In this document: positions 1 through 9,208 of the stretch, one piece after another | Position numbering within the stretch: position 1 is the stretch's first letter | Layout: each line of letters begins with the position of its first letter | Source: a virus | Taxonomy: Duplodnaviria; Heunggongvirae; Uroviricota; Caudoviricetes | Virus record (IMG/VR): IMGVR_UViG_2526164634_000013 | Span: 1 to 9,208 of that record | Length of the DNA stretch: 9,208 nucleotides | Reading direction: 5' to 3' (one strand) | The notes under the pieces: model-generated | Told to the model about the DNA's origin: nothing | Database searches by the model: none | What the model saw: the letters and a program-made list of their open reading frames with translations, nothing else | Program-made: the position numbers and the translations under genes

Positions 1-1
1 C

Positions 2-172
2 ACCATTGGCGATAAAAGCATTTACCTGTATGACCTGCGCCGCATGGATGAAATCATGGAGGCTCTTGATAATCGTTCGTCGATGGATTGGTGTGTTGCT
101 GTCCATGATATGAATGCCGGATTTGATGAAAGGATTTTGTTCCCCTCATCAGTTGAAAGCACTGCGGGTTAA
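2..172 (+). CDS. 3' end of an upstream gene (partial, function unknown)
   Basis: Reading frame 2 is open from the window edge to TAA at 170-172 (…SVESTAG*). No start codon in window and no recognisable motif. The stop overlaps the AAGGAG Shine-Dalgarno of the next gene. Confidence 0.3.
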   Translation, partial: TIGDKSIYLYDLRRMDEIMEALDNRSSMDWCVAVHDMNAGFDERILFPSSVESTAG

Positions 173-182
173 GGAGTAACAC

Positions 183-1412
183 ATGACCACTATTACCAAA
201 GAACGTATTGAATTGTTCATTAAAAATCCGCTTGAAAACGGGCTTACCCGTGGTGAACAAATGGAACTGGCACGGATTGCGCTGGCATCGCTGGAAGCAG
301 ATCCAGTTAAACGAGTTAACTCAGATCAGATGCGCCGAGTCTGCTTAGAAGCTAATCGCCATTTAGATAAATATGACGCGATGGCGAAAGAGGTAAATAA
401 GTTGCTTGGACGCATCGCCCCGCCAGCGCCGGTAGTGCCGGAAGAAGCAACTCCGGAAAACGTAGAAATGCTCTCTGGCTATGTTTCCACGTACAAATTA
501 ACCGATAGCGAGCGCGATATTGCTACCGAAATATGGAACGCCTGCCGCGCCGCCATGCTTCAGTCCGGAAACTTTCGGGAAAACAAGAATTCGTCAACCA
601 ATAATTTTCGGGAAATCGCGGAAACGTCAACCAACTATCCGGCAATTCCTAGTGAGGTGTTGTCCGCAATCCTGAAGGTTGCCAGGATTCGTGCCGATTT
701 CGATGATTTTGACGGTGACAGGCGAGGTATCGGTGATTGTCTGGATGAGGCTGAGCAAGAGCTTATCGTTACCATTAACAAATATGCCAGTCAGTTGGCA
801 GCAGAACCGATAGCGACTAATGACGTTCGAGAGCAGCAGACAGCCGTTCCGCCAGTTCCGGAAATACAGGATGATGTCGCGCAAGCAATTGAAAATCTCA
901 AGCAGAAGTTAGTGGAATGCAATCGCTATAACTACTGCGCAGATGCAGTTAAAGGCGTAGAGGATGCCTGCCACGCTGCCATGCTTCAGGGTAGCCAACC
1001 TGTAAGCCAAACTTACAAGTTGCCAGTTAATACACCTTGCCAAGATGCGCCAGCCCATATCTGGCTGCAAACGGCTGGAGTATGGCCAGAAGATGGCGAG
1101 TTAAGCGAATTAACGTGGTGCAGCCACAATCAGCACCATGATGACACGCTATATGTTCGAGCTGACCTTGTGAATGGCAACTCTCCGGTAACTCCGGATG
1201 GTTGGATAAGCTGTAGTGAGCGAATGCCGGATACCAAAACAGCCGTTCTTGTTGCCAGGGAGTTTGACAGGAAAGGTGACTGGCGAATGAAATGGGCGAC
1301 TTACATCCCGGGTCATCCTGACGCTAATGATGGGTGGATAATACCTGGTGCGTCGTGGATACCATCACACTGGATGCCTCTACCAGAACCGCCGCAGGAG
1401 GTGCGCCAATGA
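183..1412 (+). CDS. Prophage protein with C-terminal DUF551-like domain; N-terminal ~300 aa of unknown function
   Basis: 409-aa ORF with ATG at 183 preceded by AAGGAG (171-176). The C-terminus (…WISCSERMPD…WIIPGASWIPSHWMPLPEPPQ) matches, from memory, the W-rich DUF551 signature ending in HWMPLPEPP seen in enterobacterial prophage proteins. No database search was run. Confidence 0.75.
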   Translation: MTTITKERIELFIKNPLENGLTRGEQMELARIALASLEADPVKRVNSDQMRRVCLEANRHLDKYDAMAKEVNKLLGRIAPPAPVVPEEATPENVEMLSGYVSTYKLTDSERDIATEIWNACRAAMLQSGNFRENKNSSTNNFREIAETSTNYPAIPSEVLSAILKVARIRADFDDFDGDRRGIGDCLDEAEQELIVTINKYASQLAAEPIATNDVREQQTAVPPVPEIQDDVAQAIENLKQKLVECNRYNYCADAVKGVEDACHAAMLQGSQPVSQTYKLPVNTPCQDAPAHIWLQTAGVWPEDGELSELTWCSHNQHHDDTLYVRADLVNGNSPVTPDGWISCSERMPDTKTAVLVAREFDRKGDWRMKWATYIPGHPDANDGWIIPGASWIPSHWMPLPEPPQEVRQ

Positions 1413-1492
1413 ACTGGCCTGAAGCATTTGCAATTACAGGCGTTGCTATGGCTATAGCTTTTTTAGTATATGTTATTTGTCGGTGGGGGTAA
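1409..1492 (+). CDS. Micro-ORF, 27-aa hydrophobic peptide (MNWPEAFAITGVAMAIAFLVYVICRWG), putative single-pass membrane peptide
   Basis: ATG at 1409 overlaps the TGA of the upstream gene (ATGA coupling). AGGAGG at 1396-1401 sits 7 nt upstream. A hydrophobic stretch of about 20 residues is followed by RW. Too short for the supplied ORF track; translated by hand. Confidence 0.4.
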   Translation: MNWPEAFAITGVAMAIAFLVYVICRWG

Positions 1493-1527
1493 AAACGTTC
1501 GCCGGGATTAACACCAAAGGAGGGAAT

Positions 1528-1632
1528 ATGTCGGATGATATATCACTGGCAATGGAAGGTGCGCTGGCTGTTGTTGCTGTTGTGGGCGTTTACTGCCTGG
1601 TTGTGTTTTTGATGGATCGACTAGGGAACTGA
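1528..1632 (+). CDS. Micro-ORF, 34-aa hydrophobic peptide (MSDDISLAMEGALAVVAVVGVYCLVVFLMDRLGN), putative single-pass membrane peptide
   Basis: ATG at 1528 with AAGGAGGG at 1517-1524. Acidic N-terminus followed by a ~20-residue hydrophobic helix. Not in the ORF track; translated by hand. Confidence 0.45.
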   Translation: MSDDISLAMEGALAVVAVVGVYCLVVFLMDRLGN

Positions 1633-1640
1633 ATTCATTA

Positions 1641-1662
1641 CGATATGGGAATTCCCATATCG
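1641..1662. repeat. Perfect 22-bp palindrome CGATATGGGAATTCCCATATCG
   Basis: The sequence equals its own reverse complement and contains a central GAATTC. It lies 9 nt after the stop of the 34-aa micro-ORF and about 35 bp upstream of the predicted hok promoter. No U-tract follows, so it is not a classical intrinsic terminator. Confidence 0.6.
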
Positions 1663-1673
1663 GGTAAAAACGG

Positions 1674-1702
1674 TTTGCGGTAAAGCGAGAGTTAAGTAGA
1701 AT
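1674..1702 (+). promoter_or_regulatory. Candidate sigma70 promoter of the hok transcript (-35 TTTGCG/TTGCGG, -10 TAGAAT at 1697-1702)
   Basis: TAGAAT matches the -10 consensus at 5 of 6 positions, with a 16-17 bp spacer to a weak TTG-containing -35. The predicted +1 near 1707-1709 coincides with the 5' arm of the long-range complementarity to the mRNA 3' end. Confidence 0.4.
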
Positions 1703-1878
1703 TGCAGCGGGTGCTTGAGGCTATCTGTCTCAGGCATGAACACCAAAAGGCAGATAGAGAAAAGCCCCAGTTAACATTATGCGTCCTGCAAGACGCTTAA
1801 CATTAATCTGAGGCCCAATCTATGTCTCACAAATGTAGGTTAGCCTCTTACGTGCCGAAAGGCAAGGAGAAGCAGGCT

Positions 1879-2034
1879 ATGAAGCAGCAAAAGGCGATGT
1901 TAATCGCCCTGATCGTCATCTGTTTAACCGTCATAGTGACGGCACTGGTAACGAGGAAAGACCTCTGCGAGGTACGAATCCGAACCGGCCAGACGGAGGT
2001 CGCTGTCTTCACAGCTTACGAACCTGAGGAGTAA
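1879..2034 (+). CDS. hokD: Hok/Gef-family type I toxin (51 aa, small membrane-depolarising peptide)
   Basis: The product MKQQKAMLIALIVICLTVIVTALVTRKDLCEVRIRTGQTEVAVFTAYEPEE has the Hok/Gef hallmark: N-terminal TM helix and conserved TRKDLCEV…R…G…EVA.F.AYE. From memory it matches E. coli HokD/RelF very closely. The family call is secure; the exact paralog name is by recall only. An in-frame upstream ATG at 1822 with GAGG SD gives the 70-aa track ORF. Confidence 0.85.
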   Translation: MKQQKAMLIALIVICLTVIVTALVTRKDLCEVRIRTGQTEVAVFTAYEPEE

Positions 2035-2082
2035 GAGACCAGGCGGGGGAGAATCCCTCGCCACCTCTGATGTGTCAGGCAT

Positions 2083-2097
2083 CCTCAACGCACCCGC
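2083..2097 (+). promoter_or_regulatory. 3' fold-back element of hok mRNA (fbi-like), complementary to the predicted 5' end at 1707-1720
   Basis: 1707-1720 (GCGGGTGCTTGAGG) pairs antiparallel with 2083-2097 (CCTCAACGCACCCGC): 8 bp plus 6 bp with one bulged C. This is the architecture described for hok mRNAs, where the 3' end pairs with the 5' translational activator region. Confidence 0.5.
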
Positions 2098-2103
2098 ACT
2101 TAA

Positions 2104-2128
2104 CCCGCTTCGGCGGGTTTTGTTTTTT
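2104..2128 (+). terminator. Rho-independent terminator ending the hok transcript
   Basis: Hairpin CCGC-TTCG-GCGG (2105-2116) followed by GTTTTGTTTTTT. Confidence 0.75.
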
Positions 2129-2200
2129 CCTGGCATTCTGGTTTACAATTCGCACACCAGCCTGAACAACTGGCACCTGCTGCGCCAGCAGAGACAACCG

Positions 2201-2479
2201 ATGGCGCACGATACCAAATTACACAATTCTGATGATTCTGCCGTCTTTGCCAGCAGGCACGGGCGGCGTTCCCGCACTTTCAAATCTGACTGGTTCCAGC
2301 ATCCCCCATGCACTGAAGAACAGGCCGAGTGGCTAATTCAGTGCTACCGCAGACACGGATACGAGATTAAGAAAGCCCTCAGCCTCGATTATCGTCACTG
2401 GATAATCTCCGTCAGGCTTCCTTACTCCGAACGCCCACCGCGTCCGTCCCGCACATTCCAGCAACGCATCTGGAGGTAA
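2201..2479 (+). CDS. Small basic hypothetical protein (92 aa); Rem-like by position only
   Basis: ORF with ATG at 2201 chosen because the track start at 2072 would overlap the hok terminator. The SD is weak (GAGA). The TAA stop at 2477-2479 sits 1 nt before the GTG start of the next gene. Sits where rem sits between hokD and ydfU in the Qin prophage, as I recall that order. Confidence 0.45.
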   Translation: MAHDTKLHNSDDSAVFASRHGRRSRTFKSDWFQHPPCTEEQAEWLIQCYRRHGYEIKKALSLDYRHWIISVRLPYSERPPRPSRTFQQRIWR

Positions 2480-2480
2480 C

Positions 2481-3527
2481 GTGCGGGTATTACTTCGACC
2501 TGTTCTGGTACCGGAACTCGGGCTGGTGATCGTTAAGCCGGGCCGTGAATCCATGCCGGTATTCCACAATACCCGGGTACTGGTGGAGCCGGAACCGAAA
2601 AGCATGCGTAATCTGTCGTCCGGGGTCGTTCCTGCCGTTCGCCAGCCGCTGGCGGAGGATAAATCATTACTGCCATTTTTCAGCGACGAACGAGTGATTC
2701 GTGCTGCTGGTGGCGCTGGCGCATTGTCTGACTGGTTACTGCGCCATGTTAAATCCTGCCAGTGGCCACACGGCGATTATCACCACAGTGAAACCGTCAT
2801 TCACCGTTATGGTACCGGCGCAATGGTGTTGTGCTGGCACTGCGACAACCAGCTGCGCGACCAGACCTCCGAATCACTCGGGCAACTTGCTCACCAAAAC
2901 CTGTCTGCATGGATGATTGACGTCATACGCCATGCAATGAATGGCTCGCAGGAACGGGAATTATCGCTGGCTGAATTATCCTGGTGGGCGGTCCGCAATC
3001 AGGTGGCGGACGCGCTACCGGAAGCGGTATTACGTCGTTCGCTGGGGTTGCGTGCGGAAAAAATCCGCTCAATGTACCGTGAAAGCGACATCGTACCGGG
3101 AGAGCAGACCGCCACCAGCATACTGAAGCAGCGCACAAAAAATCTTGCGCCGCTGCCTCACGCCCACCAGCAAAACCCGCCACAGGAAGAGACGGTGGTC
3201 AGCATTGCCGTTGATCCTGAGTCTCCGGAATCTTTCATGAAACGACCTAAACGTCGCCGCTGGGTTAACGAGAAATACACACGCTGGGTGAAGACACAGC
3301 CGTGTGCGTGTTGTGGTAAGCCAGCCGACGATCCCCATCACCTGATTGGTCATGGTCAGGGCGGAATGGGGACAAAATCTCACGATATTTTCACGCTACC
3401 GCTGTGTCGGGAGCATCACAACGAGCTTCATGCGGATCCTCTGGCGTTCGAAGAAAAGTATGCTTCTCAGGTTGATTTAATTTTTCGTTTTCTTGATCAC
3501 GCCTTTGCAACTGGCGTGCTTGGGTAA
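2481..3527 (+). CDS. ydfU: DUF968 (YdfU-like) prophage protein with C-terminal Cys/His HNH-like motif
   Basis: 348-aa ORF with GTG start at 2481 and GGAGG at 2472-2476. The C-terminal segment CACCGKPADDPHHLIGHGQGG…LPLCREHHNELH resembles a zinc-binding HNH-type module. The length matches the roughly 349-aa YdfU of Qin as I recall it; the family call is by recall. Confidence 0.75.
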   Translation: MRVLLRPVLVPELGLVIVKPGRESMPVFHNTRVLVEPEPKSMRNLSSGVVPAVRQPLAEDKSLLPFFSDERVIRAAGGAGALSDWLLRHVKSCQWPHGDYHHSETVIHRYGTGAMVLCWHCDNQLRDQTSESLGQLAHQNLSAWMIDVIRHAMNGSQERELSLAELSWWAVRNQVADALPEAVLRRSLGLRAEKIRSMYRESDIVPGEQTATSILKQRTKNLAPLPHAHQQNPPQEETVVSIAVDPESPESFMKRPKRRRWVNEKYTRWVKTQPCACCGKPADDPHHLIGHGQGGMGTKSHDIFTLPLCREHHNELHADPLAFEEKYASQVDLIFRFLDHAFATGVLG

Positions 3528-3539
3528 AAGAGGTGACTG

Positions 3540-3899
3540 ATGCTCATAGATTTGGTTTTACCTTACCCGCCGACGGTGAACACTTACTGGCGACGCCGTG
3601 GCAGCACATATTTTATCTCGGAGGAGGGAAAGCGTTATCGCCGTGATGTGGCGCTTATTGTTCGCCAGCAGCAACTGAAATTAAACCTGTCCGGAAGGCC
3701 GGCAATAGAAATTATTGCAGAGCCACCGGATAAGCGCCGTCGTGACCTGGACAATATCCTGAAGGCACCACTGGATGTACTGACGCATGCGGGGCTGCTC
3801 ATAGACGACGAGCAGTTTGATGAAATTAATATTGTGCGCGGTCAGCTTGTTCCTGGTGGGCGGTTGGGGATAAAAATCACAGAACTGGAGTATGCATGA
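3540..3899 (+). CDS. rusA: RusA-family Holliday junction resolvase
   Basis: 119-aa product with PPxxNxYWRRRG…RRRDLDN…DDxQ…GGRL, matching the RusA catalytic acidic-residue pattern. SD AGAGG upstream. The stop overlaps the next start (ATGA at 3896-3899). Confidence 0.88.
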   Translation: MLIDLVLPYPPTVNTYWRRRGSTYFISEEGKRYRRDVALIVRQQQLKLNLSGRPAIEIIAEPPDKRRRDLDNILKAPLDVLTHAGLLIDDEQFDEINIVRGQLVPGGRLGIKITELEYA

Positions 3900-4585
3900 A
3901 TAACCAGTATTTACAGTTTGTTCGTGAGCAACTCATGATTGCCACCGCCGATTTGAGTGGATCAACAAAAGGGCAGCTTGAGGCCTGGCAGGAGAATGCC
4001 ATGTTTGATACAGGGCGTTACAGGCGTAAAAAAATCCGGTACCGCGATGAAGTGACTGGAAAAATGATAACGCGGGATAATCCACCAATCCCGGGAAAGC
4101 AATCGCTGGCGAAGGGGGCGTCAATTCCTCTCGTCAGTCCGGTTGAGTTTTTGACATCATCGTGGCGGCGGGCTGTTCTGTCTCTTGAAGAACATCATAA
4201 AGCCTGGTTGTTGTGGTGTTACAGCGGGAGTATTTGTTGGGAATATCAGATCGCGATAACGCAGTGGGTGTGGAATGAATTTAAAACCCGGTACGGCACC
4301 AGAAAAATTGCAGGGAAAACGCAGGAGCGCGCGAAGAAGTTGATCTGGCTGGCGGCACAGGATGTCAGAGGATGGATTACCGGGTGTGAGGTCTACCAGA
4401 GACAGGAGCTTGCCAGACTGTGTGGAGTTAAGCCTGATAACTGGAGCCATAATTATGCGAACTACTGGCGTGAGATGTGCGATATTTTTAAGAGTCTCGA
4501 TAGAGAATCTGTGATTTGCACCGTGAAAATAAGAGCGCAACAAAAAGCGACTTTTTCACGACGAGATATTGCAAAAGTCAATTAA
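3896..4585 (+). CDS. Putative late-gene antiterminator Q (long Q-like family, QuuQ/YdfT-type)
   Basis: 229-aa ORF translationally coupled to rusA, with GGAG 5 nt upstream. It is the last gene before a promoter-like AT-rich stretch and a strong terminator, which is the canonical Q position in lambdoid phages. The family is inferred mainly from synteny; I cannot confirm by motif. Confidence 0.55.
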   Translation: MNNQYLQFVREQLMIATADLSGSTKGQLEAWQENAMFDTGRYRRKKIRYRDEVTGKMITRDNPPIPGKQSLAKGASIPLVSPVEFLTSSWRRAVLSLEEHHKAWLLWCYSGSICWEYQIAITQWVWNEFKTRYGTRKIAGKTQERAKKLIWLAAQDVRGWITGCEVYQRQELARLCGVKPDNWSHNYANYWREMCDIFKSLDRESVICTVKIRAQQKATFSRRDIAKVN

Positions 4586-4644
4586 ATAGCGTACGTTTCG
4601 TATAAATCTGATATTTTGCCGATTTTGTACGCGATGGCAAAGTA

Positions 4645-4675
4645 AGAAAAAAACTGCCGTCAGGCGGTTTTTTTT
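4645..4675 (+). terminator. Strong intrinsic terminator downstream of Q (tR'-like), flanked by A-run and T-run
   Basis: AGAAAAAAA, then stem CTGCC-GTCA-GGCGG (one G-U pair), then TTTTTTTT (4668-4675). It is about 60 nt downstream of a TATAAAT box (4601-4607). Confidence 0.7.
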
Positions 4676-4797
4676 ATGCCCAAAATCGCGTCAGTACAGT
4701 AAACACGCTGGTGGTTGCGAATACGGGTCTTTCAGCTTGCTGGCTTTTTCGACAAGAGTTATTGGTATGTCACGTTAACCGGAAAAAGGAAAAAGAC

Positions 4798-4995
4798 ATG
4801 CTAAAACAGCAGGATATGACAGAAACCGCCAGAGTGGTGTTTAATGAATTAAGCGTTACCGAACCGGCGACAGTCGGGGAGATAGCGCAGAATACTTACC
4901 TTTCACGCGAACGCTGCCAGTTAATACTGACTCAGCTGGTTATGGCGGGTCTGGCAGACTATCAGTTCGGTTGTTACAGACGCCTTCCGCAGTGA
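4798..4995 (+). CDS. Small helix-turn-helix DNA-binding protein (65 aa)
   Basis: ATG at 4798 with AGGA 8-11 nt upstream. The segment ATVGEIAQNTYLSRERCQLILTQLVMAGLA has an HTH-like pattern. The track start at 4711 is an in-frame extension lacking an SD. Confidence 0.55.
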   Translation: MLKQQDMTETARVVFNELSVTEPATVGEIAQNTYLSRERCQLILTQLVMAGLADYQFGCYRRLPQ

Positions 4996-5006
4996 AGGCT
5001 TTTTTA
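4982..5006 (+). terminator. Intrinsic terminator overlapping the stop codon of the HTH gene
   Basis: Stem GCCTTC (4982-4987) / GAAGGC (4994-4999) with loop CGCAGT, followed by TTTTTTATTT. Confidence 0.6.
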
Positions 5007-5023
5007 TTTGTGGTAAATGGGCG

Positions 5024-5052
5024 GCTGGTGGGTGTTAGGGGCACCCACCAGC
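5024..5052 (+). repeat. Perfect 11-bp-stem hairpin (GCTGGTGGGTG / CACCCACCAGC, 7-nt loop) in the methyltransferase leader
   Basis: Exact inverted repeat with no following U-tract. A second 7-bp-stem hairpin lies at 5095-5113 (CTGCTTT-GCGCA-AAAGCAG). Confidence 0.6.
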
Positions 5053-5145
5053 CATCTGCTCATGCGTTGGGTTCACAAGCAAACCTCAGGCCCACTGCTT
5101 TGCGCAAAAGCAGAATGAGCCTATCAGAGACAGGCTTAATGATCC

Positions 5146-6195
5146 ATGCTTAATACTGTAAAAATATCCAGTTGTGAGTTAATCAACGCCGACTGCCTGG
5201 AATTTATCCGGTCGTTACCCGAAAATTCTGTTGACCTGATAGTCACGGACCCGCCGTACTTTAAAGTGAAGCCTGAGGGCTGGGATAACCAGTGGAAGGG
5301 CGACGATGATTACCTGAAATGGCTGGACCAGTGTCTGGCGCAGTTCTGGCGGGTGCTGAAACCTGCCGGAAGTCTTTACCTGTTCTGTGGTCATCGCCTG
5401 GCATCTGATATCGAAATCATGATGCGTGAACGCTTCAGTGTGCTGAACCATATTATCTGGGCGAAGCCGTCCGGACGCTGGAACGGGTGCAACAAGGAAA
5501 GCCTGCGGGCGTATTTCCCCGCCACAGAGCGCATTCTGTTCGCGGAACATTATCAGGGGCCGTATCGCCCGAAAGATGCCGGGTATGAGGCGAAGGGCAG
5601 GGCACTGAAACAGCATGTGATGGCCCCGCTGATTTCTTACTTTCGTGATGCGCGCGCTGCCCTGGGGATAACGGCAAAACAGATAGTGGATGCCACAGGA
5701 AAGAAAAACATGGTGTCACACTGGTTCAGTGCCAGTCAGTGGCAGCTACCGAACGAAAGCGATTATCTGAAATTACAGTCGCTGTTTGCCCGGGTGGCAG
5801 AAGAGAAACATCAGCGGGGAGAACTGGAAAAGTCCCATTACCAACTGGTCAGCACATACAGTGAGCTGAACCGGCAGTATACGGAACTGCAGAGTGAATA
5901 TAAGCATCTGCGGCGGTATTTTGGCGTGACGGCGCAGGTGCCGTACACGGATGTGTGGACGCATAAACCGGTGCAGTACTATCCAGGGAAACATCCGTGC
6001 GAAAAACCGGCAGAAATGCTGCAGCAGATAATCAGCGCAAGTAGTCGTCCTGGTGATCTGGTTGCGGATTTTTTCATGGGGTCGGGTTCAACGGTAAAAG
6101 CGGCGATGGCACTGGGGCGTCGTGCGATTGGCGTTGAACTGGAGACCGGACGTTTTGAGCAGACAGTCAGGGAAGTTCAGGATTTAATCGTTTGA
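5146..6195 (+). CDS. Orphan DNA methyltransferase, beta class (N6-adenine/N4-cytosine family, PF01555-like)
   Basis: 349-aa product with catalytic DPPY (residues 35-38) preceding the AdoMet-binding motif HPCEKP…GDLVADFFMGSGST (residues 283-316). That motif order defines the beta class, and DPPY rather than SPPY favours N6-adenine. No obvious SD before the ATG. No restriction endonuclease ORF in the window. Confidence 0.88.
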   Translation: MLNTVKISSCELINADCLEFIRSLPENSVDLIVTDPPYFKVKPEGWDNQWKGDDDYLKWLDQCLAQFWRVLKPAGSLYLFCGHRLASDIEIMMRERFSVLNHIIWAKPSGRWNGCNKESLRAYFPATERILFAEHYQGPYRPKDAGYEAKGRALKQHVMAPLISYFRDARAALGITAKQIVDATGKKNMVSHWFSASQWQLPNESDYLKLQSLFARVAEEKHQRGELEKSHYQLVSTYSELNRQYTELQSEYKHLRRYFGVTAQVPYTDVWTHKPVQYYPGKHPCEKPAEMLQQIISASSRPGDLVADFFMGSGSTVKAAMALGRRAIGVELETGRFEQTVREVQDLIV

Positions 6196-6244
6196 AACGG
6201 ATGAGATTGCAGAATTAATTACGCACCATTATTATTCTGCTCCC

Positions 6245-6320
6245 GGCCCTTTAGCTCAGTGGTGAGAGCGAGCGACTCATAATCGCCAGGTCGCTGGTTC
6301 AAATCCAGCAAGGGCCACCA
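6245..6320 (+). tRNA. ileZ: tRNA-Ile2 (anticodon CAU, lysidine type), ileZ-like
   Basis: Hand-folded cloverleaf: acceptor GGCCCTT/AAGGGCC, D-stem GCTC/GAGC, anticodon loop CTCATAA, T-loop TTCAAAT, encoded CCA. Closely resembles E. coli tRNA-Ile2 as recalled. Confidence 0.8.
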
Positions 6321-6327
6321 TCACATA

Positions 6328-6404
6328 CCGCCATTAGCTCATCAGGAAAGAGCGCCAGCCTTCGAAGCTGGCTGCGCGGAGTTCGGGTCCCCGAAGGCGG
6401 TCCA
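6328..6404 (+). tRNA. argN: tRNA-Arg (anticodon UCG as read from sequence), argN-like; atypical stems
   Basis: Perfect anticodon stem CCAGC/GCTGG with loop CTTCGAA, D-stem GCTC/GAGC, encoded CCA. However there is one A-A mismatch in the acceptor stem, one A-C mismatch in the T-stem, and the T-loop is TTCGGGT (G at position 58). Confidence 0.55.
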
Positions 6405-6417
6405 TTATCTGTATCCT

Positions 6418-6494
6418 GCGTTGTTAGCTCAGCCGGACAGAGCAATTGCCTTCTAAGTAATCGGTCACTGGTTCGAATCCAGTACAACGCGCCA
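6418..6494 (+). tRNA. argO: tRNA-Arg (anticodon UCU), argO-like
   Basis: Acceptor GCGTTGT/ACAACGC, D-stem GCTC/GAGC, anticodon stem ATTGC/GTAAT with loop CTTCTAA, T-arm ACTGG-TTCGAAT-CCAGT, encoded CCA. Confidence 0.82.
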
Positions 6495-6508
6495 CACTTA
6501 TTTTCCCT

Positions 6509-6533
6509 GGCTCGCTTTTGCGGGCCTTTTTTT
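6509..6533 (+). terminator. Intrinsic terminator immediately after the tRNA cluster
   Basis: Stem GGCTCGC / GCGGGCC (one U-G pair) with loop TTTT, followed by TTTTTTT. Confidence 0.7.
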
Positions 6534-6730
6534 AAATGTCTCACAATTCAGACGGTTGACAGTTGTCTGTTTTGCGGGGAGTTTGTTAAAAGAAACTGGC
6601 ATGGTGAATCCCCCTGTGCGGAGGGGCAATCAGCGAGTAGGTATATGGGATAATCGCGGATTCAGGTGCTGGTACTGAATTCACCGGGAGGCACCCGGCA
6701 CCATGCAATGGCACATAGCGCCACTCTCCA

Positions 6731-6755
6731 GCCCCTCTCCGGAGGGGCTTTCTTA
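6731..6755 (+). terminator. GC-rich hairpin with T-rich tail (terminator-like) in the tRNA-to-esterase interval
   Basis: Stem GCCCCTC / GAGGGGC with loop TCCG, followed by TTTCTTA. Shares the core CGGAGGGGC with a second hairpin at 6611-6626. Confidence 0.4.
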
Positions 6756-6760
6756 TGGAC

Positions 6761-6788
6761 AAAAAAATCCCGCGCTGGGAGACGCGGG
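6761..6788 (-). terminator. Minus-strand intrinsic terminator-like element (hairpin CCCGCG/CGCGGG followed on the minus strand by U7)
   Basis: On the + strand this reads AAAAAAAT, then CCCGCG, an 8-nt loop, then CGCGGG. On the minus strand that is hairpin plus T-run. It sits back-to-back with the + strand hairpin at 6731-6755. Confidence 0.35.
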
Positions 6789-6982
6789 CGGCAAGGAATA
6801 AACATCAAAACGTGAAGTAATATTTCAGCTGGCGAATAATATCCGACAGTAATCACTCTGCGCAATAGCGCGGCCTTTTTCGTATTGCGGACTGTTGTCT
6901 CTCTTCTGCCATTGTCCTGTAACTTCCGGACTTCAGCCCGCTCCTCATTTTACTCACAATATTATCCCGGCCGGGAGGATTC

Positions 6983-8836
6983 ATGGCATTTAAACACTAT
7001 GATGTTGTCAGGGCGGCGTCGCCGTCAGACCTTGCGGAAAAGCTGACACATAAACTGAAAGAGGGCTGGCAGCCGTTTGGTAGTCCGGTGGCCATAACCC
7101 CTTATACCCTGATGCAGGCGATTGCAGCAGAAGGTGATGTGGTCGTCAGTGGTGCAACTGAGCCGGAGTGGTACTACGTCATCGTACTGGCCGGGCAGTC
7201 CAATGCCATGGCTTACGGTGAAGGGCTTCCGCTTCCGGATTCATACGATGCGCCGGATCCGCGCATTAAACAGCTGGCGCGCCGCAGTACAGTGACGCCG
7301 GGTGGGGCTGCCTGCAGATATAACGATATTATTCCGGCCGACCACTGCCTGCATGATGTGCAGGATATGAGTACGCTGAATCATCCGAAGGCAGACCTGA
7401 GCAAAGGGCAGTACGGCTGTGTCGGCCAGGGCTTACATATTGCCAAAAAACTGCTTCCGTATATCCCGAATAACGCGGGGATCCTGCTGGTACCATGCTG
7501 TCGTGGTGGTTCGGCATTCACCCAGGGCGCGGAGGGGACATTCAGTGCGGACACGGGGGCCAGCCAGGATTCGGCACGCTGGGGTGTGGGTAAACCGTTA
7601 TATCAGGACCTGATTGCGCGCACTAAAGCTGCATTACAGAAGAACCCGAAAAATGTGTTGCTGGCGGTGTGCTGGATGCAGGGAGAGTTTGACATGAGCG
7701 CCGCCACCTACGCACAGCAACCTGCGCTGTTTACAGCCATGCTGAAGCAGTTTCGTGCTGACCTCACTGTGTTTAACGCGCAGTGTCATGGTGGCAGTGC
7801 TGCAGATGTGCCGTGGATTTGTGGTGACACGACGTATTACTGGAAAAATACATACGCTACCCAGTACGACACCGTGTACGGCGGGTATAAAAACAGGGAG
7901 AGTGAGGGCGTTTATTTTGTGCCCTTCATGACAGACGGTAACGGCGTCAATACCGCCACTAACGCACCGGCAGAAGATCCGGATATTCCGGCATCAGGAT
8001 ATTACGGTGCGGCATCGAGAACGAATGGAAACCAGGTATCATCAAACCGCCCGACACATTTCAGTTCATGGGCGCGCAGGAGCATTATTCCGGATCGTAT
8101 GGCAACCGCTATTCTGAACGCAGCCGGGCGCACCTCAGCCTTCATCAGTGGTAAGGCACCGGAAATCAAACCCTCGCCCGGCGTCGACACGCCATCGGGG
8201 CCGTCTGAAGATGCATCCGTACGCACAATCTCCCTGTTGCCGACAGCCGGAGAGGCTGCTGCGCAGGGCTGGACCATTAAGGACGGCGGAATTCAGTTGT
8301 CGGGTGGTGTATTTAAGATCGCCAAGCAGAGCAATAAAGCCTGGTCCCTGACGCGCCCGGTGGGTGACGCAGTCTCCCTGCTGACACGGGGTGGCAGACT
8401 GAGCTGTAAGTTTCGACTGTCAGGCGCACTGACCAACAACCAGTTCGGTCTGGGAATTTATCTGTATACCGATGTAGCGTTACCTGACGTCGTGGCGATG
8501 ACCGGGACTGGTAACCCGTTCCTGATGTCGTTCTTCACCCAGACCACAGACGGCAAACTGAATCTGATGCATCACAAGAAAGCAGGAAACACAAAGTTGG
8601 GCGAGTTCGGGAATTACAGTAACGACTGGCAGACGCTGGAGCTGGTGTTCACCGCCGGCCAGTGCCACGGTTACTCCGAAACTGAATGGAGTGGCTGGCC
8701 CGGCATTCCAGGTCATAAAGACAGTCTGACAGTGGGACTAAATGCACTGACGCTGACGGATATTACCAAAAATGCAACGTATGGCGTTGAGATAGAAAGT
8801 CTGGTGCTGGAGATAAATGCACCGGCATCATCATAA
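6983..8836 (+). CDS. nanS-p: Prophage sialate O-acetylesterase NanS-p-like (SGNH/SASA hydrolase with N-terminal DUF1737-like region)
   Basis: 617-aa product. The motif [16 protein letters not shown] carries the GQSN catalytic-serine signature of SASA-type esterases (NanS/YjhS family). The N-terminal [21 protein letters not shown]… resembles the short domain that heads prophage NanS-p proteins. GGGAGG SD at 6973-6978. Confidence 0.8.
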
Positions 8837-8921
8837 AAAGTGAGCCAGTCAAGTGGAAGGTATCGTTAAACTCACCGGTAGTGTCAGTGGGTCGTCTGAG
8901 ACGCCTGCATGAGTTATCAGA

Positions 8922-8950
8922 GCCATCAGTACTTAACTGGTGGCTTTTTT
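8922..8950 (+). terminator. Intrinsic terminator between the esterase gene and the holin gene
   Basis: Stem GCCATCAG / CTGGTGGC (one G-U pair) with 7-nt loop TACTTAA, followed by TTTTTTATT. Confidence 0.6.
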
Positions 8951-8985
8951 ATTGTTGTCAGCTTCCGGATAACGGGAGACGGGGT

Positions 8986-9201
8986 ATGTACCAGATGGAA
9001 AAAATCACAACAGGTGTGTCATACACCACGTCAGCGGTGGGAACGGGCTACTGGTTCCTGCAGTTGCTGGACAGGGTTTCCCCGTCTCAGTGGGCGGCAA
9101 TAGGCGTGCTGGGGAGTCTGCTGTTTGGGCTGCTGACATATCTGACTAACCTGTATTTCAAAATCAGAGAGGACCGTCGTAAGGCGGCGCGGGGAGAGTA
9201 A
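8986..9201 (+). CDS. S: S21-like pinholin (class II holin) with dual-start motif
   Basis: 71-aa product [71 protein letters not shown]. From memory it is near-identical over the C-terminal two thirds to the phage 21 holin (…[15 protein letters not shown]…[22 protein letters not shown]). Two TM segments and Met1/Met4 dual starts. The track ORF from 8881 is an unsupported N-terminal extension. A new ATG at 9206 starts the next gene. Confidence 0.85.
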
Positions 9202-9208
9202 AGCGATG

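Follow-up and report, generated by a model that had tools for sequence, protein, structure and literature searches.

The 22-bp palindrome CGATATGGGAATTCCCATATCG occupies positions 1641–1662 of a 9208-nt stretch of viral DNA (IMG/VR record IMGVR_UViG_2526164634_000013, positions 1 to 9,208), which is called the window here and represents the early-right to lysis segment of a lambdoid Escherichia coli prophage. Sequence comparison suggested that this palindrome, situated upstream of a hok gene, is probably a stray copy of a motif that belongs to genes encoding KilA-N-domain proteins, and probably a protein docking site or a relic rather than a control element of hok. Its origin is well supported, with homology to the palindrome inside KilA-N genes being very probable, and its function is what we infer from the manner in which the motif is maintained. 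According to the preferred reading, to which a probability of roughly 0.5 is given, the palindrome would be an orphan copy of a symmetric site at which a dimeric KilA-N protein docks on double-stranded DNA.

Sequence and rarity of the palindrome

Direct reading and a script both confirmed that the sequence at 1641–1662 is its own reverse complement, consisting of two perfect arms of exactly 11 nt each with a spacer of 0, as an earlier note on this DNA had described. The palindrome is real and non-random. The chance expectation of a spacerless 11+11 palindrome in 9208 nt is approximately 9208 × 4^-11 = 0.002, and an arm length of 11 was attained in 2 of 500 mononucleotide shuffles of the window. 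The only other spacerless palindrome in the window with arms of at least 6 nt was the 12-mer TCCCGGCCGGGA at 6965–6976.

Occurrence of the motif in KilA-N genes

An exact scan of IMG/VR detected CGATATGGGAATTCCCATATCG in at least 119 contigs. Among 124 analysed loci with the exact 22-mer, approximately 89 were linked to hok in several arrangements and approximately 35 were not. Among the non-hok matches, the 22-mer was found in frame, as (S/R)DMGIPIS, inside open reading frames (ORFs) with a KilA-N domain, where the flanks had strongly diverged and the 22-mer remained identical. It could also be found in a dozen or more unrelated phage contexts. A scan for the 18-mer core using one genome per species returned 95 stretches over many phyla; the full 22-mer was present in 63 of these, and about 50 coincided in their location within KilA-N genes (Pfam PF04383). 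Six Bacteroidota KilA-N genes had the same DNA at the equivalent position of the domain in another reading frame, as RYGNSHI. No description of a palindrome inside KilA-N genes was found in the searchable literature.

Some 18-mer matches carried long variable stems (Patescibacteria etc.; loci L133, L157/L170, L178, L192, and L158). A hairpin element with a constant tip was considered for them and dropped, as they have the look of ordinary intergenic terminators, L178 being an extended-stem hairpin with an A-run and a T-run. Tens of chance 18-mer matches would be expected, by a rough estimate, among all hairpins of 185,000 genomes.

Maintenance of the palindrome at the nucleic-acid level

A sample of 80 KilA-N loci was picked only by the peptide GTW[VM][HE][PE]x[VL]A, blind to the motif, and yielded 62 distinct sequences. 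The palindrome occurred at one fixed position, usually 53 nt upstream of the GTW codons, with 9–11 of the 11 positions paired in 58/62 sequences (11/11 in 29, 10/11 in 16, and 9/11 in 13). Control windows in the same genes reached at least 9 pairs in 5 of about 30,900 cases. The centre GGAATTCC was nearly invariant in KilA-N genes. The window 22-mer is the commonest variant of this palindrome and shares the 22-bp length and the GGAATTCC centre; its own location is intergenic, whereas the family copies precede the GTW codons of a KilA-N ORF by about 53 nt. Further variants and the heptapeptides that they encode were as follows:

CGATATCGGAATTCCGATATCG, encoding DIGIPIS
CGATACCGGAATTCCGGTATCG, encoding DTGIPVS
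CGATGTCGGAATTCCGACATCG, encoding DVGIPTS
CGATGCGGGAATTCCCGCATCG, encoding DAGIPAS
GTCCATGGGAATTCCCATGGAC, encoding SMGIPMD
GGAAACGGGATATCCCGTTTCC, encoding ETGYPVS

Across 56 distinct sequences, 94.5% of pair cells were complementary compared to 76% in shuffles, none of 500 of which reached 94.5%. Changes on both sides could be observed in 10 of the 11 pairs, and double-change cells numbered 91 against 22.5 expected. When the partners were slid by 1–3 columns as controls, complementarity was 26–50%. Pairing was present in 48–61 of 62 sequences at positions 1–11 and in 42/62 at position 12, and fell to background beyond, which defines a sharp unit of 22–24 bp. In an independent database, 99 heptapeptides revealed covariation at the protein level (M-I, I-I, T-V, V-T, and A-A; D-S, E-S, and V-T), the amino-acid pairs covarying as codon complements. 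The compensatory arm changes, the sharp edge, and the other reading frame in Bacteroidota together argue that the nucleic acid and not the peptide is conserved. A comparison of protein identity with palindrome class was confounded by the selection of loci and was not used.

The central AATT would be the loop of a hairpin, though it stays complementary at the synonymous third positions of GGA and ATT. The mismatches comprised 13 G-T, 18 A-C, and 27 others, without a preference for wobble pairs. Since the central AATT is conserved and G-T mismatches are not in excess, a double-stranded DNA site is favoured over a hairpin, and selection on the KilA-N palindrome as such a symmetric site has, in our judgement, slightly better than an even chance. 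Whatever its function, a symmetric nucleic-acid palindrome kept within a protein domain across phyla and frames is an unusual overlapping constraint, and it would bias codon-level or dN/dS (ratio of non-synonymous to synonymous substitution rates) analyses of these KilA-N genes.

The profile of these KilA-N domains matched structures of yeast Mbp1 (APSES) with an E value of 8e-6, with a 7-residue gap exactly at sdmGiPi. In the AlphaFold2 model, the heptapeptide caps the C-terminus of helix B, makes a G-I-P turn, and begins a short helix, at a predicted local distance difference test score (pLDDT) of about 98; DMGIPIS is the turn that links helix B to the wing. The DNA sites of APSES proteins are short palindromic boxes, for example ACGCGT. 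Mbp1 has the fold family in common with KilA-N domains and differs in lacking the seven residues that the palindrome encodes.

Three loci showed variations on the motif. D3 orf11 has a different palindrome, paired 9/11, at the same spot. A KilA-N gene in a 244-kb viral contig of 27% GC content (L431, 1940–2021) carries three GGGAATTCCC-centred palindromes with different arms, 30 nt apart in the same inter-helix segment. In L062 (13856–13913), two palindromes of different class stand side by side in one ORF, 14 nt apart, in frame in the linker of a phage protein unrelated to the KilA-N proteins. A scan for pairs of GGGAATTCCC returned mostly unrelated tandem repeats, and was informative only for L062, L428, and L431.

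Orphan copies and their origin

The features surrounding the palindrome in the window are as follows (the promoter is our own reading relative to the leader start at 1709):

1409–1492, plus strand: micro-ORF1, 27 amino acids (aa), hydrophobic (MNWPEAFAITGVAMAIAFLVYVICRWG); its homologue in palindrome-free loci leads directly into the hok promoter
1486–1496, plus strand: 11-bp direct repeat GGGTAAAAACG, copy 1; true 3' end and stop of micro-ORF1
1528–1632, plus strand: micro-ORF2, 34 aa, hydrophobic; hypothetical protein in RefSeq (coding sequence 3149–3253 in L003–L005)
1623–1640, strand not applicable: left flank GGGAACTGAATTCATTA, which includes the micro-ORF2 stop codon
1641–1662, strand not applicable: 22-bp perfect palindrome CGATATGGGAATTCCCATATCG, probable orphan copy of the commonest variant of the KilA-N gene palindrome
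1662–1672, plus strand: direct repeat GGGTAAAAACG, copy 2; remnant of the micro-ORF1 3' end, where homology to palindrome-free hok loci resumes
1674–1702, plus strand: putative hok promoter (-35 TTTGCG 1674–1679, 17-nt spacer, -10 TAGAAT 1697–1702)
1709–1884, plus strand: hok mRNA leader and sok target region (Rfam RF01794, 121 bits)
about 1759–1829, minus strand: Sok antisense RNA, expected by analogy with the sokW annotation in VT2-Sakai
1822–2034, plus strand: mok, 70 aa, overlapping hok
1879–2034, plus strand: hok, 51 aa (Pfam HOK_GEF, E 1e-23)
2102–2129, plus strand: hairpin and T-run resembling an intrinsic terminator, where the hok unit ends

A 30-nt query spanning the palindrome matched 978 of 5426 complete E. 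coli genomes (approximately 18%), including O157:H7 and other prophages of Shiga toxin-producing E. coli (STEC), and the KilA-N gene was present in 137 of the 5426 (approximately 2.5%). Hok followed immediately in all sampled E. coli orphans, whereas their left neighbours differed (micro-ORF2, Paa, or an ORF6N gene), and the 22-mer upstream of hok was joined to at least four different left contexts. Only matches to the full 22-mer (CG..CG) were counted as orphans. A KilA-N gene was absent from 148 of 151 orphan loci. The closest complete prophage, integrated at ompW and 99% identical over window positions 1176–3228, has one palindrome; no KilA-N gene was found in the window or in this 49-kb prophage. 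These varied contexts argue, as far as sequence can tell, for repeated capture or retention of the element; the damage in 12 of 29 hok-linked copies and a conservation not significantly above that of the flanks in the window-type lineage count against this. A repeat of the repetitive extragenic palindromic (REP), bacterial interspersed mosaic element (BIME), or enterobacterial repetitive intergenic consensus (ERIC) type was considered and rejected, as only 978 of 5426 genomes matched, the sampled sites all either preceded a prophage hok or fell within a KilA-N gene, and no Rfam match was obtained. The matched genomes had a median of 4 BLAST places each, which is read as about 2 sites on the assumption that each palindrome is matched on both strands.

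In phage vB_EcoS-673R7 and a Rac-like prophage, a KilA-N gene lies antisense and immediately upstream of hok. The preferred reading proposes that this arrangement of related Rac-like and lambdoid prophages was the ancestral one, and that recombination would have replaced the gene, leaving the palindrome with about 15–20 nt of flank between micro-ORF2 and the micro-ORF1 remnant. The left flank of hok-linked orphans reads CTTTAACTGATTGAATTCGCTC and variants thereof, and in the window GGGAACTGA----ATTCATTA (comparison of L303, L309, L380, L023, L370, and the window). This left flank is similar to the 3' flank of the antisense KilA-N gene, CTTTAAATGATTGAATTAACTC; in the window the similarity extends over only about 14–22 nt and needs a gap of about 4 nt, and the right flank is unrelated to the KilA-N gene. 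The left flank may descend from the antisense KilA-N 3' flank through a deletion of about 4 nt, and this short homology is suggestive only.

The GGGTAAAAACG repeat, made up of the micro-ORF1 3' end and its remnant, brackets micro-ORF2 and the palindrome, and in comparison with the simpler arrangement this segment has therefore been inserted or has replaced other sequence. Such a layout is also compatible with the palindrome being a recombination-prone junction, which, by forming a hairpin in single-stranded DNA or by attracting structure-specific nucleases, would be a preferred breakpoint for module exchange in the variable early region of lambdoid phages and would explain the different cargo genes joined to hok here. 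Homology between arrangements indeed breaks 0–20 nt from the palindrome edges, the left neighbours vary (micro-ORF2, Paa, ORF6N gene), and the 11-bp direct repeat flanks the segment. However, 22 bp is short for cruciform extrusion, with a DNA hairpin of just -7.6 kcal/mol, and many hok breakpoints lie elsewhere, such as at the -10 in QueH-type loci. Family-wide maintenance in KilA-N ORFs and a centre invariant at synonymous sites are also left unexplained, and we consider this explanation improbable.

Relation of the palindrome to hok/sok

BLAST analysis with window positions 1380–2140 against phages and the 5426 E. coli genomes revealed that in most hok loci homology to the window begins only at 1659–1666, the right edge of the palindrome, and runs rightwards. 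In VT2-Sakai hokW (L002) and in L006, the stop of the micro-ORF1 homologue runs straight into the hok promoter with no palindrome, and in L007 and L008 a different sequence is found upstream of hok. In the Paa/AdfO context (L001), all 22 positions of the palindrome are kept together with 14 nt of the left flank, and micro-ORF2 is absent; micro-ORF2 is confined to the window-type arrangement. Among 107 hok loci from IMG/VR contigs, picked by hok promoter and leader sequence alone, the palindrome was present in 29 and absent in 78 (approximately 73%). The 29 copies comprised 17 exact ones and 12 with one or two uncompensated changes. The distance from the palindrome to the GTTAAGTAGAAT anchor of the hok promoter was either 28 or 46 nt, so the palindrome holds no constant helical phase to this promoter. 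In L309, a degenerate, different palindrome, CGATGCGGGACTTCCCACATCG, stands instead of the 22-mer at about 46 nt ahead of the anchor, which suggests that the site can switch class or decay in place.

The palindrome lies upstream of the start of the Rfam model at 1709, and together with its absence from 78 of 107 loci and its variable spacing this indicates that it is probably no component of hok/sok control. It physically adjoins a complete hok/mok/sok unit, and unlike the known cis elements of hok/sok (promoters, tac, fbi, and sokT) it is outside the Rfam model and missing from most hok loci. The outcome at hok is negative but useful, as it places the palindrome outside hok/sok. Absence from syntenic loci, which the earlier note had itself named as the observation that would speak against a role here, is what most hok loci display.

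A dimeric regulator might still bind the palindrome, as an operator or activator site ahead of the hok promoter, which is the main idea of the earlier note. Its two-fold symmetry is perfect, its centre lies at about -57.5 beside an A-tract at -43 to -39, and it recurs upstream of hok in several arrangements. Yet it is missing in 73% of hok loci, including the annotated hokW/sokW of VT2-Sakai, its spacings of 28 or 46 nt are out of helical phase, the window offers no second site or candidate regulator, and in the established model hok/sok control is post-transcriptional. This explanation is regarded as very improbable. The same absence, hokW of VT2-Sakai included, and the variable spacing speak against the proposal of the earlier note that an operator couples the micro-ORFs to hok. 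The palindrome starts 8 nt past the micro-ORF2 stop and ends 12 nt before the putative -35 (neither box of this promoter was flagged by a consensus promoter scan), so a distance of 35–55 bp upstream of hok -35/-10, as given earlier, fits the -10 and not the -35.

Additional copies of the half-site, which the earlier note had suggested looking for in the host genome or prophage, occurred in the window at chance level only. The 65-aa helix-turn-helix protein at 4798–4995, put forward there as a candidate binder, is an ORF without a Pfam hit that nothing links to the palindrome, and the window has no second half-site. A local dimeric repressor operator was rejected on these grounds, together with the absence of a KilA-N gene from the closest prophage. 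What survives is the more general idea of a symmetric site for a dimeric DNA-binding protein, which is still the best reading, while the specific proposals lack support.

As a single strand, CGATATGGGAATTCCCATATCG can fold into a 9-bp stem with an AAUU/AATT loop (RNA -12.9 kcal/mol, z = -4.3; DNA -7.6 kcal/mol). Such an RNA hairpin might stabilise the 3' ends of read-through or micro-ORF transcripts, be cut by RNase III, or terminate these transcripts despite lacking a U-tract; its stability and its place 8 nt past the micro-ORF2 stop would suit this role. Against it, no U-run is found on either strand and no terminator was called, the four central (loop) bases of the KilA-N family stay complementary without wobble pairs being favoured, no Rfam family matched at 1641–1662 even at a permissive E-value, and the palindrome persists in the Paa context, where micro-ORF2 is missing. 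The chances of such an RNA role are rated as very slim. An intrinsic terminator was likewise rejected, since the sequence after the hairpin, GGUAAAAACGG on the plus and UAAUGAAUUCAG on the minus strand, has no U-run, and the scan made no call; the suggestion of a factor-independent terminator lacking a U-tract is not supported either.

The BstA-like gene and the aba element

The E. coli gene containing the exact 22-mer of the window encodes a 257-aa protein (WP_000200358.1) with an N-terminal KilA-N domain (Pfam E 4e-27) and a C-terminal BstA-like domain. Its entire length matched PHROG 6287, 'BstA abortive infection system' (E 3e-89), and a further match was to the C-terminal part of the PADLOC BstA model (E 3e-21). 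This is the gene found antisense to hok in vB_EcoS-673R7 and the Rac-like prophage; elsewhere it follows cI, which is the bstA position.

BstA is switched off by aba, a short stretch of the bstA locus; each BstA variant has its cognate aba, which takes effect when present at high copy (PMC8585504). It is tightly linked to bstA and acts as DNA (Owen et al. 2021, Cell Host Microbe, PMC8585504). The BTP1 element, aba-BTP1, is 63 bp long and non-palindromic, straddles the bstA start codon, and depends on terminal CCCGCC direct repeats, and in two of the three systems, BstA-Ec and BstA-Kp, the aba elements are unmapped and the mechanism of aba was left open (PMC8585504). The palindrome as the published aba element was rejected, since it neither resembles the 63-mer nor shares its architecture, and bstA of BTP1 has no such internal palindrome. 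The two cases are alike in that a short DNA element lies within the locus of a prophage defence protein with a KilA-N or KilA-N-like domain. They differ in that the motif described here goes with the canonical KilA-N domain irrespective of which C-terminal domain is attached, also in cyanobacteria and Bacteroidota, and was read from sequence alone.

Proposed function of the palindrome

According to the preferred reading, the element would be a double-stranded docking site for a dimeric KilA-N protein. The KilA-N protein, whose domain is predicted to bind DNA, is the sole factor that necessarily co-occurs with the motif across phyla, which makes it the candidate ligand; its being the actual ligand is given slightly less than an even chance. 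The fixed length of the palindrome fits the footprint of a protein. As the prophage has no KilA-N protein, the site can act only in trans. By analogy with aba, it might titrate or silence a KilA-N/BstA-like defence protein of another prophage during replication of this phage; alternatively, the site may no longer be used. Current function of the window copy as a decoy or immunity site is doubtful.

Several observations weigh against the preferred reading. No report of a KilA-N protein binding this motif or GGAATTCC was found in the searchable literature, and the more distant KilA-N genes of HK544, Klebsiella, and Moraxella phages are without the motif. The G-I-P turn is structured (pLDDT about 98), so the invariance of the centre may be partly a protein constraint, and template switching from arm to arm could keep the symmetry without selection. 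Among hok-linked copies, the 12 of 29 with uncompensated changes, such as CCGTATGGG in 7 loci, are damaged on one arm, which is the expected look of a decaying relic. In the window-type lineage, the palindrome has 2 variable columns compared to a mean of 4, a value equalled by 27% of windows (not significant). No internal 22-bp palindrome was found in bstA of BTP1, and as aba-BTP1 is a non-palindromic 63-bp element, the link to aba is a conceptual analogy and not homology.

The palindrome could accordingly be an inert relic, the debris of a recombination that removed the antisense KilA-N gene, with the symmetry inside KilA-N genes resulting from quasi-palindrome self-correction by intramolecular template switching, along with the G-I-P constraint, and not from a function of the DNA. 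The damaged arms, a conservation in the window-type lineage no better than that of the flanks, and the structured turn are all in line with this, as are the absence of the palindrome from 73% of hok loci, the lack of a cognate gene in the closest prophage, and a left flank that looks KilA-N-derived. It fits less well that the 22-mer is intact at two independent junctions, at one of them exactly to the right edge, and that the same 22-mer stands with at least four left contexts upstream of hok. A dozen or more unrelated phage contexts also hold it, some of them as in-frame patches apparently gained more than once, and the sharp 22–24 bp edge, kept across phyla and frames, is not predicted by neutral self-correction. 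An inert relic is therefore considered possible, though on the unlikely side.

A broader form of the docking-site reading, offered tentatively and itself unlikely, is that KilA-N dimers across phyla recognise a 'self' site in their own gene, and that orphans are captured decoys against abortive infection of the KilA-N/BstA type. Protein and site would then be inseparable by recombination, and specificity classes would diversify by paired changes in the arms, a corollary that is equally speculative. If this were true, the single BstA/aba case would be generalised to a large domain family, with a class of anti-defence elements that need no protein. To our knowledge, no target is known for KilA-N, which is a very common phage domain, and the motif would give a handle on what phage KilA-N domains bind. 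It would likewise offer a handle on how BstA-like prophage defences whose KilA-N domain is canonical distinguish the prophage's own replicating DNA from an invader's, and on whether phages can evade defence with 22 bp of DNA instead of a protein.

Comparison with other in-gene DNA elements

The lambda origin, which consists of four iterons and an AT-rich region inside gene O, is likewise a cis-acting symmetric site inside the gene of its putative binder, translated into a connecting segment of the protein. The KilA-N motif differs in being usually a single 22-bp site, without evidence for a replication function. Rickettsia palindromic elements (RPEs), of 100–150 bp and present in many copies in one genus, are likewise palindromes translated within ORFs in more than one reading frame. 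The KilA-N unit differs from them in its length of 22–24 bp, its one or few copies per genome, its restriction to one domain across phyla, and its covarying arms.

With an in-frame tolerance like that of RPEs, KilA-N-type palindromes could also be observed as patches in the linkers of unrelated proteins. One such patch lies in the linker of an unrelated phage protein family, in two separate clades (P0010 and P0049 versus P0014), and from their sequences it appears to have been gained at least twice. Another is in frame at about position 2172 of L072, in the linker of an unrelated phage protein.

Two further loci carry the motif or its centre outside KilA-N genes. In L428, a GC-rich viral contig, six copies of GCGCGGGGAATTCCCCGCG(C/T)G occur 30–50 nt apart at 4341–4550, a region that may be intergenic; this array looks like a set of binding sites of the same centre type, and no KilA-N gene was found near it within the 8.7 kb of sequence. 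In L018, an orphan 22-mer at 6877–6898 is located between copies of the iteron-like repeat GCAACCAATGCGCGC, and this region may be origin-like.

Other features of the window

The remaining annotated features of the window were as follows:

183–1412: DUF551 protein
2481–3527: DUF968 protein
3540–3899: RusA
3896–4585: Q antiterminator
5146–6195: DNA methylase
6245–6491: three tRNAs
6570–6760, plus strand: STnc100 small RNA homologue (full-length match, 139 bits against a gathering score of 47)
6983–8836: sialate-esterase-like protein (SASA/nanS-p-like)
8986–9201: holin

The STnc100 match sits between the cluster of three tRNAs and the esterase gene, in the slot occupied by stx in Stx-converting phages. 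Just downstream of Q, at 4641–4716 on the minus strand, an STnc370-like match stayed below the threshold (46.7 bits against 54). A perfect 12-bp inverted repeat with a 7-nt loop could be observed at 5023–5053, after the 65-aa ORF at 4798–4995.

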